NCBI GenBank assembly: GCA_951406725.2
Contig: OX597823.1
Span: forward strand, 32,302,001-32,366,000
Source: Octopus vulgaris
Taxonomy: Eukaryota
Direction: 5' to 3'
DNA: 64,000 nt
The notes under the pieces: model-generated
Database searches by the model: none
Told to the model about the DNA's origin: nothing
Seen by the model: only the letters and a program-made list of their open reading frames with translations
Translations under genes and position numbers: made by a program
In this document: positions 5,599 through 47,553 of the stretch, piece after piece
Layout: the number at the start of each line of letters is the position of its first letter
Numbering within the stretch: the stretch's first letter is position 1

Positions 5599-5850
5599 TG
5601 GATGCAGTGGAGTTGTATCAGTGACCAGGTGAAAGAAGAGTGACAAAACTTTTTTATTAGATCAAAGTAGACAGTTACTATAAAACAATGAACCGAGAAT
5701 AAACAGGATAGTTTTTGTGTCCAGAAATGGCTTTCAATGCCTCTTTGTAATTGTCTCAGTTTCAACAAATGACCTCTGATCAATTCATTTCCCAAACAAG
5801 AACAACACTTAAAATAATTCTGTAAGTTTTTCTTTTAACAACATTGGCCA

Positions 5851-5945
5851 TACATTATTTACATTTGACGGATATTTGTACTCATCTCATTTGTTGTTAA
5901 CACATTTCAGCTGATATACCCTCCAGCCTTCATCAGGTGTCTTGG
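5851..5945 (-). mobile_element. Inverted copy of the HHR-bearing tail of the adjacent SINE (PLE-style inverted pLTR)
   Basis: Reverse complement of about 6590-6684; contains GACAC-CTGATGA-AGGCTG..CAGCT-GAAA. Confidence 0.8.
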
Positions 5946-5964
5946 TCCATGGGTATCAGCCCAC

Positions 5965-6477
5965 GGGCATATGGCATAGAGGTTAAGAGCGTGGGCTACC
6001 AATCCCAAGATTCTAAGTTCGATTCCAAGCAGTGACCTGAATAATAATAACAATGATAATAATAATAATAATAACAATAATAATAGTCAAGATAAAGAGC
6101 ATGATTCGATTGTAAGATATTTTATTAGTTGAACGATATTTCAACAGTACATCTGTCTTTGTCAAGTTCAAAATAAGAAGTGATAAAAGTTTAAAATTAC
6201 AGAAATTTAAACGTAAAGTATGAATGAGAGCAACCAGCATCCAGTAACTTAAAAACTGATGATGTCATTCCATCAATGTGTGGACGCTGGTTGCTTTCAT
6301 TTATACTTTACATTTAAATTTCTGTAATTTTGAATATTTATCACTTCTTATTTTGAACTTGACAAAGACAGATGTACTGTTGACATATCGTTCAACTTAT
6401 AAAATATCTTACAATCGAATCGCGCCCTTCATCTTGACTGTTTACCTTTATGAAGAGTTAAGTCAATCCTTTTTAAA

Positions 6478-6537
<60 letters not shown>

Positions 6538-6713
6538 CAACAACATTGAAAAATACATTAGGAATGAGAACCCAGTTTCAAAATTTCTTCAAGACACTTG
6601 ATAAAGGCTGGAGAGTATATCAGCTGAAACGTGTTAACAACAAACGAGATGAGGACAAATATCCGTCAAATGTAAATAATGTACATAATTCTCATCTCTT
6701 AGATATAGAACTG
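5965..6713 (+). mobile_element. SINE with tRNA-like head, (AAT)n linker and hammerhead-containing tail (interrupted by a fold-back element)
   Basis: A box TGGCATAGAGG at 5972-5982, B box GTTCGATTCC at 6017-6026, degenerate HHR at 6593-6635; colinear with the copy at 20000-20295. Confidence 0.8.
6083..6441. repeat. Fold-back element (~160-bp inverted arms, ~37-nt loop) nested in the (AAT)n linker
   Basis: Arms at about 6083-6243 and 6281-6441 are reverse complements; the ORF track shows near-identical peptides on opposite strands. Confidence 0.9.
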
Positions 6714-6797
6714 AACATTGACCATGCTCATGTTTAATCTTCAATCTAAAAAGTACTTTGACCCACCACTTATCTTTCTGTCATAAAAGGCCAGTTG

Positions 6798-16037: not shown

Positions 16038-16719
16038 CATTCATGTATGTACGTATGTATACACATGCGTGCACACGCTTTCACTTACAGATGCATATGC
16101 ATGCAGATACACACTTATATTCATACAATGATACACGCACACACATATATACACACATTTAGGTAGACCATGTGATTAGTAATGGACCAGCACCTCCCTC
16201 TGCCCCTGACCAGATGTCACTCTGTTATTCTATTCTAAACTCTCTGATTCTGAGATCAATTCATCACGTGTCTAGTTGATGATGTGTCTGCTATATGCTC
16301 TATTATGCTATATTATGTTGTTTTATTTATGATGTTTTATCATGTGATGTTAGTTTTAGATGTTATGTTTTTGTTTACCTTATGTTCTACAATATCATAC
16401 AACATAATCTTATATTATAATATTTTACATTATTAATATGGTGTGCAGTCATATTTTCTCAAACTATTATTGAGGTTATGTTGTTGTTTGTATTGTTATT
16501 GCTTAACCCCAGGTCAGTCTGGATTAAGTAAATCTTTAATCAAAGCCATTCCAGCCATAAACATCCTAAGGATGTGGCTAGGTCTAAATTATCCAATGTG
16601 ACCTTTTCTTTAAGATAGCATAACAGGATTTTGTAGAGATTTGGCAGCTATTTTTAGATGATAGGCTAACCATGTAGAGGCTCCCTTAATTGTGTTGCTA
16701 TGTCATATTATGCTACCTG

Positions 16720-17190
16720 TTAATATTATGTACCCTGTTATATCATCAGTTATACTGCTATATCGTCATCTACCCAGCTATATTGTCATCTACCCTGTTA
16801 TATTGGTATCTATCTTGCTGTATTGTTATCTACCCTAATAAACTGTCATCTAGTTATATAATTTTCTATTTATTTGATCATCTACCCTGGGAAATTGTCA
16901 TCTACCCAACTATATTGTTAACTACCCTGTTTATTTTTATCTGCCCAGCTAAATTGTCCAATACCCAGTTACAATGTGTTATAACGTCATCTACCCTACA
17001 AGTGTCATCTACCTGCTAAAGTATCATCTACCCAGCTAAATTGCCATCTACTCTGTTGTGTTTTTATCTAGCTATATTGTCATCTGTCCAGCTATATTGT
17101 TACCCACACAGTTATACAGTCATTTACCCTGCTAAATTAACATCTACCCAGTCATATTATCATCTGCCTGGCTTTATTGTTATCTACCCT
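16720..17190. repeat. 20-bp minisatellite (consensus about tatattgtcatctacccagc), ~20 diverged units
   Basis: Periodic gtcatctaccc. Confidence 0.85.
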
Positions 17191-18682
17191 GCCACATTAC
17201 GTTACAATGTATTATTAAATCCAACAATATTTGGTAATATAAAAACAATATAAAATTCATTAATAAATAATTAACAACACATAAGATAATATTGATTTTA
17301 CGGAAGCTGATAATGAAGCTTCTATGTGATTGCTCCACCTGCTAAAATAGCAACCAAATCCACCTGAAATCACACTTTATCATCTTAAAAAAAGAAAACA
17401 GTGGACAGTATAGTACTTGGAATACAAAAAAAGATTAAATAGTCACAGAATAGTTTGGTTATAGATCTACCCAAATGTTGCTGACTTGGAGCTAAACCAT
17501 TACAATGTATCGATTTCATAGATAAATGGACACAGGAACCAACACTGATAAAAGGTTGAAATGAGAGCTTCATGCATTTCCAGAGATATTTGCACTTCAA
17601 ATGAAGTGAAATATCCCTAAACAGCAATCGATATACAAAGTGGGTGTAATCTTAAATCAGAGTATGAATAATATTGCTATATTTAACTGTACTCGACATT
17701 TTCTGTTTCCAGAGGAATGATACATGGGAAGTGGTGTCAGTCATGCTTTTCTCAAACCTATTAGCAGCATGGTTAATGTGATGGTTTCCTTAAGCACATG
17801 ACTCTCTTTGGCATTTTTGTCTTTTTATAATAAACTGTTGTTGTTTAGCCTCTGATCAGTTCTAATCAAGCATGTTTTATGATCAAAGCATTCCAGACAT
17901 GACCATCCTGTTTAATTTTCTAACACTGCATTCAGAAGGGCTCTACATGATGTTTCTTTCCTTCAGTATGATTCGAGGGAGATTTTGTTGCTATTTGGTT
18001 GCTATTTCAAGCAGGTCAATAGACAGTGTAGAGGCTACTTTAGTTTAAAATAGACAACAGTTAACCTTAGTTAATTACTGGTATTTATCATCTTTTCCCA
18101 TTGAGAAACAATAAGGAAAACATAAAACATGGAGGGAATTTGAACTCAAACGGGTTTATACCAACAAAGAAACCATATAGACACTGTTAGAAATAGCAGT
18201 CACATCTTCTTCAATTCACGCCTTATCTTAAAAAAAAGGAACCACACTTTGGACAAATTATATATAGAGAGGGTGATCACAATCAGAGCAGCTATGATCA
18301 CAGACTGGCTAAATCAAAGCTGACCTGGGGCTAAACAACATCGAGAAATACCTCAACACATCTCTCTGTTTTACATACCAACACCATCACTGTCAGCAAC
18401 AACAAAACAATTTGTAATTTTGACAATAGCAAAGAGATGCCGGACCACAGCTAGCAGCAGCACCGGCAGAGAAGAAAGAAGAGAGTAGTAGCAGCATCAA
18501 TAGTTATCTATATGCATGTACATACATACGTATGTATGTAGAGTATACATGTGTGCACATAAGTATGAAGACATGTACGTTTGTATGCATGTTTGTATGT
18601 AAGCATGCATATATGTATATATGAATATATGACTTTGTGTACTTAAGTATGCGTGTATGTACATATGTATGTCTGTGTGTAC

Positions 18683-18724
<42 letters not shown>

Positions 18725-19469
18725 TACATGCACACACACATACCTAAGTACATAGGCATATATGTGTGTGTGCATTGCGTGTGTGTGTGTGTGTGTGAAC
18801 GAGTATGTATGTATGTATGTATGTATGTATGTATGTATGTATGCATGTATGCATGTATGCAAGAATGCATATGGGTGGATGGATGGATGGATGAATGGAT
18901 GGATGGATGGATGGATAGATGGATGGGTGGGTGGATGGATGGGTGGATCGATGTAGATATGTATTTCATGATTGTTTCCTTACAAATGTAGACAAATACA
19001 TCATGAACGTAGGTGAGAGGAAGGAATTATTAAAATGATGGAAATATTAATAAATAATGCTAATGTATTTATTTATTTATTAAATTACTATTGATGTTGC
19101 TGCCGTTTATGCTGTTTCTGCTGTTTCCTCTATCTATAACACCTGCCATCACCCACTGCTGATGATGGTGCTTCCCTTAGTTCTGTTAATGAGTTTTTCT
19201 CGTTGAGTCAGTATTAACGAAAAAAGAAAAATGTAAGAAATTGAAAGTAAAATATCCAATAATGAATTTGGAACAGAAGGAATAGAAGAAAGAAAAAGAA
19301 AATTTAAGAATGAAACATGTCAGATGACAGACAATATTTTCAGAACAAAAAAAAAAAAAAACAGAATAAAAAACAAACATTTCCAAATATACATGGCACA
19401 AGAAATATTAAAACATCTAACTATAGGATGTATTAAAGGTATTGGGCAACATAAATTTCAAAAGTAGCC

Positions 19470-19900
19470 GACAAATGCTTCAAACATGCAGACAACAAAA
19501 ATTTTTAATATACCAGAAGACAAACGTGTTACACACGGCAGGCGACAAACACTTCAAACATACCAGATGACAAACATGTCAAACATATCAAACAACAAAC
19601 ATGTCAAACATATCAAACAACAAACACTTCCAGCACACCAGACTACAAATATTTCAAACATGCAGATGACATATTTCAAACATATCTTACAACAAACATT
19701 TCAAACATACCAGATCACTTACATATTCGATGATAAACATGTCATATGTACCAGCCAACAATGATTCAACCATATAAGTCGACAGACAAATCAAACATAC
19801 CAGGCGATAAAAAATTCAAACACACCTGACAACAAATGCTTGAAACATACCAAGCAAAATGATTCAAAACATAGTAACCAAGTTAGATACATCAGATGAC
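19470..19900. repeat. 25-bp minisatellite (about tcaaacataccagatgacaaacatg)
   Basis: Periodic tcaaacata; accounts for ORF 19486-19764. Confidence 0.8.
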
Positions 19901-19999
19901 TAGAAATGTTTCAGAAGCTATTTCTTTTGATCTCATTTGTTCATTATTTTCTTTGATTTCACTAGTTCGTTATTTTGATTTAGGACGAATTATTCAATA

Positions 20000-20295
20000 C
20001 AGTTCTATATTTAAGAGATGAGGAATTATGTACATTATTTAAATTTGACAGATATTTGTCCTCATCTTGTTTCTTATTAACACAACGTTTTGGTTGATAT
20101 ACCCTCCAGCCTTCATCAGGTGTCTTGGGGAAATTTCAAACCTGGGTTCTCATTCCTAAAGTAGTTTTCAATGTTGTTGTTATTGTTGTTATTATTATTA
20201 TTATTATTATCATTATTATTCAAGTCACTGCCTGGAGTTGAACACAGAATCTTGGTGTTAGTAGCCCGTGCTCTTAACCACTATGCCACATGCCC
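20000..20295 (-). mobile_element. Uninterrupted copy of the tRNA-head/(AAT)n/hammerhead-tail SINE
   Basis: Minus strand: A box TGGCATAGTGG, B box GTTCAACTCC, (AAT)n, then GACAC-CTGATGA-AGGCTG..CAACC-AAAA-CGTT-GTGTT at 20079-20124. Confidence 0.8.
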
Positions 20296-20308
20296 TTGGG
20301 CTTTTTTT

Positions 20309-20653
20309 TTATATAACTATCTCTTCAATAGGGGCTATTATGTCCAAGTATAGAATGCACTTGATGGTTGTCACAAAGGTGAGACCTTTGTTTAGTACTG
20401 CTTCTTCAGAGCTTTCTAGTTGTCGGCTACTTACATTAATTACTGCTTTCACAGGTGGGTGACAGACTTCAGTCTTCATTCTCTGACCTTTGAGTTTCAT
20501 AAACTTCTTAATCTGGCGTGTCTTCACCATTTCAAATTCTTTCATGTACGACTTTTCTAGATCTTGCTGGATTTTCTTTCTATCATCATCTCTGGTTATT
20601 TTCCTAAGTAATGAAGATAACCTCTCTTTGATTCCGTTATTTAGTTTCAACAT
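20309..20653 (-). pseudogene. Penelope-like element ORF fragment (region N-terminal to the RT domain)
   Basis: QIKKFMKL...VINVSSRQLESSEEAVLNKGLTF...DIIAPIE resembles the VINLS..L...E..VL.KGLNF motif upstream of PLE reverse transcriptases. Confidence 0.75.
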
Positions 20654-32724: not shown

Positions 32725-32808
32725 GATGAAAGCTGGAGGGTATATCAGCCAAAACGTGTGAACAAACAAGATGAGGACAAATATCTGTTAAATGTAAATA
32801 ATGAACAT
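32725..32808 (+). mobile_element. 5'-truncated tail of the hammerhead SINE
   Basis: gatgaaagctggagggtatatcagccaaaacgtgtg..gatgaggacaaatatc.gttaaatgtaaataatg. Confidence 0.8.
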
Positions 32809-47158: not shown

Positions 47159-47553
47159 ATATAATTAGTGAATGGAAGAAATGGAGTTGAACGAAGATTG
47201 TACAGAATTCCTTTTATTACATTCTACACATGTTTCAAAGGCCACAATTTTCCAAATTCTGATTAAATAAGGATACCATATTGCAGCTTTCTCTTCAGGA
47301 AAAAGCAGGAATTACGTTGACAGAACAATGGGCTCTTAAGGAGCGTCCTCGTTCGAATTGCTTTGCTGCGCCTCAGTTTTGTTTTGTTCTGTCAACGTAA
47401 TTCCTGCTTTTTCCTGAAGAGAAAGCTACAATATAGTATCCTTATTTAATCAGAATTTGGAAAATTGTGGCCTTTGAAACATGTGTAGAATGTAATAAAA
47501 GGAATTCTGTACAATCTTCGTTCAACTCCATTTCTTCCATTCACTAATTATAT
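47159..47553. repeat. Near-perfect fold-back (170-bp arms, 55-nt loop) with a hammerhead motif and AATAAA in each arm
   Basis: Plus arm: TTC-CTGAAGA (47414)-long stem II-GAAA (47476)-CATGTG-TA-GAA, then AATAAA at 47494. Confidence 0.88.

Follow-up and report, generated by a model that had tools for sequence, protein, structure and literature searches.

How did a SINE-like repeat with a hammerhead motif come to lie, in the same orientation, directly behind a piece of a Penelope-type element (PLE) open reading frame in Octopus vulgaris? In the window, i.e. the whole stretch of 64,000 nucleotides that was analysed, the first-pass annotation had explained this junction by a template switch of a PLE reverse transcriptase (RT) from the RNA of an independent hammerhead SINE to its own RNA. 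The integration of PLEs is poorly understood, and the locus matters as a record of the mechanism. A fixed 5' end of the RNA lets the behaviour of the RT be seen there, whether it folds back, anneals to the other arm or jumps.

Anatomy of the fused copy

The junction of a minus-strand PLE ORF fragment with a tRNA-derived head through an A-tract is real (ORF piece 20646-20317, filler, head from 20301). The locus is composed as follows:

20646..20650, minus strand: TTGAA, found again at 19997-19993; could be what is left of a target duplication, 5 bp, chance level
20317..20646, minus strand: N-terminal part of the PLE ORF, 330 nt, unit positions about 518-848, cut at both ends
20302..20316, minus strand: junction filler of 15 nt, TTATAT+A9; with two substitutions accepted in the last part of the ORF it shortens to T+A9
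20221..20301, minus strand: tRNA-derived head, starting at the sharp +1 of the family; A box 20288-20278, B box 20243-20235
20176..20220, minus strand: (AAT)n/(AAC)n spacer of the pLTR
19996..20175, minus strand: pLTR tail, 180 nt, holding the first ATG of the ORF (20153-20151) and the hammerhead
20079..20124, minus strand: minimal type I hammerhead; helix I GACAC/GTGTT, core CTGATGA 20119-20113, predicted cut 20084/20083

Two borders of the first-pass annotation had to be moved. The ORF start at 20653 is a chance ATG in the flank and the homology begins at 20646; the tail ends at 19996 instead of 20000, which is the distal one of the two 3' end clusters of the family. The ORF piece contains the peptide VINVSSRQL..EEAVLNKGLTF and shows 95% identity to the family reference in the alignment. 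Of 251 candidate places in the genome 40 were scored, and 39 besides the window match the piece at 90-95%; at these 39 the PLE homology extends past both of its ends. The filler supplies the stop of a 113-codon frame, for which Pfam returned no match. A PDB search gave weak RT matches only. The 5' palindrome of the head reads GCCC-AA-GGGC, against GCCC-AC-GGGC in the family.

A SINE inserted into an older PLE, as the first-pass annotation had remarked, should be followed by the rest of the ORF; downstream of the tail there is non-PLE DNA and the ORF does not resume past 19996. Furthermore, the ORF piece is less diverged than its own head-tail (6-8 non-CpG changes in 334 nt versus 12 in 241 nt, P 0.05), which counts against insertion into an older PLE. 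The probability that random insertion placed one of 66 heads beside a co-oriented ORF piece is about 0.004-0.015, assuming 150-600 ORF copies. No second place spans the exact ORF-to-head junction (40 scored of 1779 candidates). That 20646-20317 and the head form an amplified composite family was rejected, since the shared borders were the limits of the query and the junction was not found elsewhere. The search for an empty site in the genome found the upstream flank to be unique, and no empty allele was present in the DNA contigs of four runs from related organisms; three of these four runs contain the tail/flank join, and one contains the ORF/flank join over 30 nt. The window locus is a dead, rearranged one-off copy of a Penelope-type element.

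The tail also holds a possible small intron (GT...AG, 38-47 nt, with a pyrimidine run) at about unit positions 235-270, window 20036-20002; RNA joints in reads of a related organism did not show it.

Parent element and its terminal repeat

Twenty of the places matching the ORF piece were extended. In eight of them the ORF stop is followed, 23 nt on, by head, (AAT)n and tail, and two more carry a damaged head-tail after the stop. On the 5' side of the ORF a tail, a head with tail or an ORF end with head and tail recur, i.e. partial tandems. The majority reference is a 2648-nt unit with a single 835-codon ORF, whose first ATG lies within the tail. Since the same unit stands after the stop codon and its tail carries the ORF start, the supposed SINE is the pLTR of the element: at its 3' side the PLE natively ends in the head-(AAT)n-hammerhead-tail unit, and no separate SINE is involved. 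The tail of the parent pLTR is 87-97% identical to the window tail, so the concern that the two might be unrelated was not borne out. The fusion had been expected to identify the autonomous partner; this association is established instead by the plain contiguity of head-tail with ORF.

RVT_1 was matched in two natural copies (E 2.7e-6 and 1.6e-9), and the translations show YVDD and VYSIPCSCGRLYKGET, that is RT and then a C-terminal GIY-YIG in one ORF. GIY-YIG is assigned by motif, as Pfam gave no match for it. The GIY-YIG core has CxC and lacks the linker finger pattern, and EH and DH motifs were recognized by eye. Two Cys in the GIY-YIG core (CCHH) without a CX2-5CxxC linker finger is the Penelope/Poseidon pattern according to the accessible part of PMC8557442. 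The pLTR features (partial tandems, an inverted 5' copy, an optional tail of 30-40 nt) are present as well. Judged by domain motifs and pLTR features, the element would be an EN+ PLE of the Penelope/Poseidon clade.

The A and B boxes lie at +14 and +59 of the head, and its best local scores were obtained with tRNA-Arg(TCG/TCT), 55 and 52.5 against shuffle maxima of 32-38, in a comparison with tRNAs of 7 anticodon types plus one Glu call sampled from the genome. A/B boxes were absent in five of eight related metagenome PLE contigs, the five examined, and these contigs are short. No account of a tRNA-headed pLTR was found in the literature outside Repbase/Dfam and subscription papers, where the short form of the pLTR may be catalogued as a SINE. 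OK, OR1 and OR2 SINEs were reportedly described in octopus in 1994.

Two side observations concern the genomic arrangement of the element. L243/L244 (G000:C11:56264315-56268701) are long ORF copies in mirror-image arrangement, separated by about 1 kb and bordered on their inner sides by tail fragments. Segmental duplications carrying the element are suggested by L058/L059 and by G000 C31/C7, near-identical copies with shared flanks or equal scores.

Short head-tail copies

The exact 31-nt head pattern occurs 1037 times and an exact ORF 31-mer 29 times. From among the matches listed 90 head loci were sampled and 89 analysed (L139 was left out, its head being off-centre; L058/L059 are counted twice). 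The ORF end is retained upstream (12-833 nt) in 23 of the 89, which are native; the non-native heads comprise 44 with an inverted arm, 21 alone and one with a co-oriented ORF piece. Sixty-six of the 89 heads begin at the same base (+1), where about 3 would be expected from the 5'-truncation rate of native copies; the head pattern demanded the +1 start, and truncations within the head are therefore uncounted. The first 10 nt of the head form a palindrome, and a fold-back of at least 3 nt was detected in 48 of the 66 non-native heads. In the inverted pairs L060, L072, L075, L092, L097 and L146 the direct arm breaks or skips just after the A box, at head positions 26-31, which makes this a second breakpoint that recurs.

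The 3' ends of both arms fall in two clusters about 28 nt apart, at two internal pLTR sites, and (AAT)n is internal rather than a priming 3' tail. Copies occur singly or as inverted pairs, two-unit tandems are occasional, and tandem arrays were not seen. At 22 variable positions none differed between ORF-linked and short copies (all p>0.05); without diagnostic variants the short copies form no SINE lineage, and the hammerhead SINE of the first-pass annotation loses its standing as a separate element. The short copies would be by-products of the same masters and not a self-propagating SINE. The element is SINE-like at its promoter and PLE-like at its integration, and belongs to the PLEs only.

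Sister chimeras, target duplications and jumps

ORF-to-head chimeras recur in the genome. The donor positions are about 848 in the window, 989 in L003, 419 in L073 and 605 in L075, and all land on +1; a further chimera, L171, leaves the donor at 2288 and lands via fold-back. The four donor sites are all in the 5' part of the ORF, where the searches that found two of them were aimed. A poly(A) signal as explanation of the donor sites was rejected, as AATAAA occurs in the reference only at 1794 and 2128 and none is nearby.

Target duplications of at least 11 bp were recognized in 22 of 58 copies, compared with 6 of 600 shuffled pairs. They enclose ORF piece, head and tail together in L073 (11 bp, exact), L075 (13 bp with 1 mismatch) and L003/L093 (12-14 bp), and the tail-to-head chimera L089 is also enclosed; L003, L073, L075 and L089 each went in, therefore, as a single event. 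The three sister chimeras within target duplications support the template switch of the first-pass annotation, with the correction that its SINE RNA is the element's own pLTR. The 5 bp repeat of the window copy is at null level, and the sampled one-armed ORF-bearing copies mostly lack a clear duplication too. A single insertion event is likely for the window copy as well.

Skips are common among about 70 distinct ORF loci, and large co-oriented skips occur throughout the ORF. In the ORF-side samples 2 of 18 large jumps end at the head start (P 0.008). The clean +1 landings carry an A-rich filler of 10-18 nt in three of four cases; among the other jumps 11 of 16 have no filler or have microhomology. 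A-run fillers at +1 are also found beside inverted arms or unrelated DNA (L088, L096, L099, L102), so the filler may consist of added bases and A9 need not be a copied RNA tail.

Transcription signals

In the native context TATAA stands at -28 of the head. The sense strand of the 2648-nt reference unit has no TTTT, while two codon nulls predict 2.9 and 5.2 for the ORF (P 0.025 and 0.0024); this test used the majority reference sequence, and seven natural copies hold 7 TTTT runs in 13.1 kb (0.5 per kb). All nine control retroelement ORFs (four other RT families of the same genome and five related metagenome PLE ORFs) contain TTTT, at 1.7-8.8 per kb. From these sequence signals it appears that Pol III may transcribe the coding PLE from the tRNA-type head. 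In RNA reads of a related organism (3 runs, one study) starts accumulated neither at +1 nor at the ribozyme cut, and accumulations of ends were likewise absent; the reads are apparently unstranded, equal on both strands and dominated by read-through. Additionally, palindromic pLTR 5' ends are described in PLEs without tRNA heads (PMC3846280, in part), which means that the sharp +1 may mark something other than the start of transcription.

Hammerhead motif

The motif fits the type I minimal hammerhead descriptor as given in the accessible part of PMC4209133. In the window it is damaged by two changes, G12>A at 20091 and one in helix II at 20094, and this copy is predicted to be inactive. In folding an intact copy reached z -2.7 and the window copy does not fold; G12 is conserved in 29 of 38 copies with identifiable helix II. 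Rfam gave no tRNA or hammerhead match for the window at E<=1 or for 401 nt of an intact copy at E<=10, and ARAGORN did not recognise the tRNA-like head; both calls are made by motif inspection, that of the head also by alignment to the tRNAs of the genome.

Proposed mechanism and alternatives

In the proposed course of events Pol III would start at the head of a pLTR and read into the ORF, and such head-initiated RNAs would often end early with a short A-rich tail. The RT would prime internally in the tail, copy back to the 5' end of the RNA and run off. Fold-back or annealing through the 10-nt palindrome would then give the common inverted pairs; alternatively the RT could jump onto the 3' end of a truncated element RNA, either its present template or a second molecule. 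In the window the landing point would be close to ORF position 848, and copying would have ended after 330 nt. For the anole Poseidon protein such priming inside the tail was reported in vitro, and the anole element has two RT start sites (PMC11167929, in part), comparable to the two 3' end clusters found here. The polymerase, the RNA ends and the jump at the window locus are what we infer, and it is probable, in our judgement, that a head-initiated RNA, priming in the tail, run-off at +1 and a jump to the A-rich end of a truncated element RNA gave the 330 nt. More tentatively, and with some doubt, the element as a whole could be an autonomous PLE that Pol III transcribes from a captured tRNA promoter in the pLTR, with terminators purged from its 2.65-kb unit and with chimeras that record end-to-end RT jumping from 5' to 3' end.

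Neither a short RNA nor Pol III is required if the RT, on a long (Pol II, tandem) PLE RNA, was halted by the palindrome and passed over about 1.8 kb, or if the intervening part was lost later and repaired with filler. Internal skips of 100-1000 nt are frequent in the family (the 16 other jumps), palindromic pLTR ends and microhomology deletions are known in rotifer PLEs (PMC3846280, in part), and the RNA reads lack a start at +1. We regard such an intramolecular origin as rather unlikely, since the other skips are mostly blunt or microhomologous and the +1 landings have long A-rich filler, 66 of 89 heads end at +1, and the intact A/B boxes and the missing TTTT would be left unexplained. The chimera could also stem from two events, if the PLE endonuclease inserted a head-tail at an AT-rich site of an older ORF fragment and the downstream ORF was lost. 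This would suit the missing enclosing target duplication in the window and the AT-rich breakpoints, as the anole enzyme cuts ATT (PMC11167929, in part), and according to PMC6765202 (in part) PLEs insert close to copies already present. It is nevertheless improbable: the window ORF never resumes, unlike those hit by other insertions in L033, L046, L192 and L227, the head-tail has diverged more than the ORF piece (P 0.05), and target duplications enclose three sister chimeras.

It is very improbable that the repeat is an independent SINE with a hammerhead, moved in trans, whose RNA was joined to the RNA of its partner. The excess of head over ORF 31-mers (1037 against 29) and the lack of an ORF end in at least two thirds of the heads speak for it. 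Against it, the entire unit is native to the autonomous element, none of the 22 variable positions sets the short copies apart from the ORF-linked ones, and the short copies stop at RT start sites and do without the downstream ORF sequence that the anole protein requires on its template (PMC11167929, in part).

Relation to known elements

The octopus element shares many features with Poseidon_Ac of the green anole (PMC11167929) and Adineta Pen2/Pen2a (PMC3846280), as far as the accessible parts of both sources describe them: a single ORF of about 835 codons with RT and then GIY-YIG; a pLTR in which the ORF begins and which carries a minimal hammerhead; partial tandems and an inverted 5' arm; 3' ends at two sites separated by about 30 nt; and target duplications, a 5' palindrome and internal deletions. 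Unlike these, its pLTR opens with a tRNA-derived A/B-box head and (AAT)n, its sense strand lacks TTTT, and pLTR-only copies exceed ORF copies by tens.

A Pol III-type promoter beside a hammerhead in a short repeat is found in the Schistosoma Sm-alpha and Sj-alpha repeats as well; those are non-coding and often tandem, whereas the octopus unit is the terminal repeat of a coding element, and the accessible part of the review names no autonomous partner for them (PMC6765202). Cassandra, Helenus and Ajax (TRIMp3) likewise have a small-RNA-derived Pol III promoter within the terminal repeat, but are non-autonomous LTR elements of 0.3-1.3 kb (PMC10886601, in part), in contrast to the 2.65-kb coding PLE. 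Animal non-LTR retrozymes resemble the present case as pLTR-related hammerhead repeats moved by PLE proteins; they form tandem arrays and have no tRNA head, while the octopus copies are dispersed, single or in inverted pairs (bioRxiv 10.64898/2026.07.22.740005, in part).

End-to-end template jumping is a property of the R2 reverse transcriptase, which runs off at the 5' end, adds bases and jumps to the 3' end of another RNA. The PLE RT belongs to a different RT class, and end-to-end jumping is here proposed from copies.

It should be emphasized that repeats annotated as tRNA SINEs in this octopus genome can be the ends of a coding PLE. If true, the reading of a coding unit by Pol III would give an autonomous retroelement an unusual route of expression, and end-to-end jumping would explain both the partial tandems of PLEs and the origin of thousands of SINE-like copies from a LINE-like element.

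Other repeats in the window

A second copy of the repeat served for comparison:

5851..6713, plus strand: comparison copy with inverted tail 5851-5945, head 5959-6054 and tail 6528-6713

The first-pass annotation had placed this copy at 5965, with an inverted tail at the 5' position that the ORF piece occupies in the fused copy; the inverted tail is indeed there, and the head starts at 5959. A 14-bp repeat whose two units differ at 2 positions lies on either side of the copy (5840-5853 / 6714-6727). Between inverted tail and head, 5946-5958 is a degenerate direct repeat of the first 12 nt of the head, which may reflect a second start of copying at the 5' end of the RNA. Its (AAT)n was entered by a fold-back element (6082-6442) with 162-nt inverted arms (91%) and a 37-nt centre.

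A third pLTR fragment at 32725-32808 begins inside the hammerhead core (unit 154-243) and has 86% identity. The near-perfect inverted repeat at 47159-47553, with 170-nt arms of 99% identity 55 nt apart, is young, either a fold-back or an insertion with two arms. Tandem arrays of degenerate units, each about 20 nt long, occupy 16718-17193 and 19420-19860.
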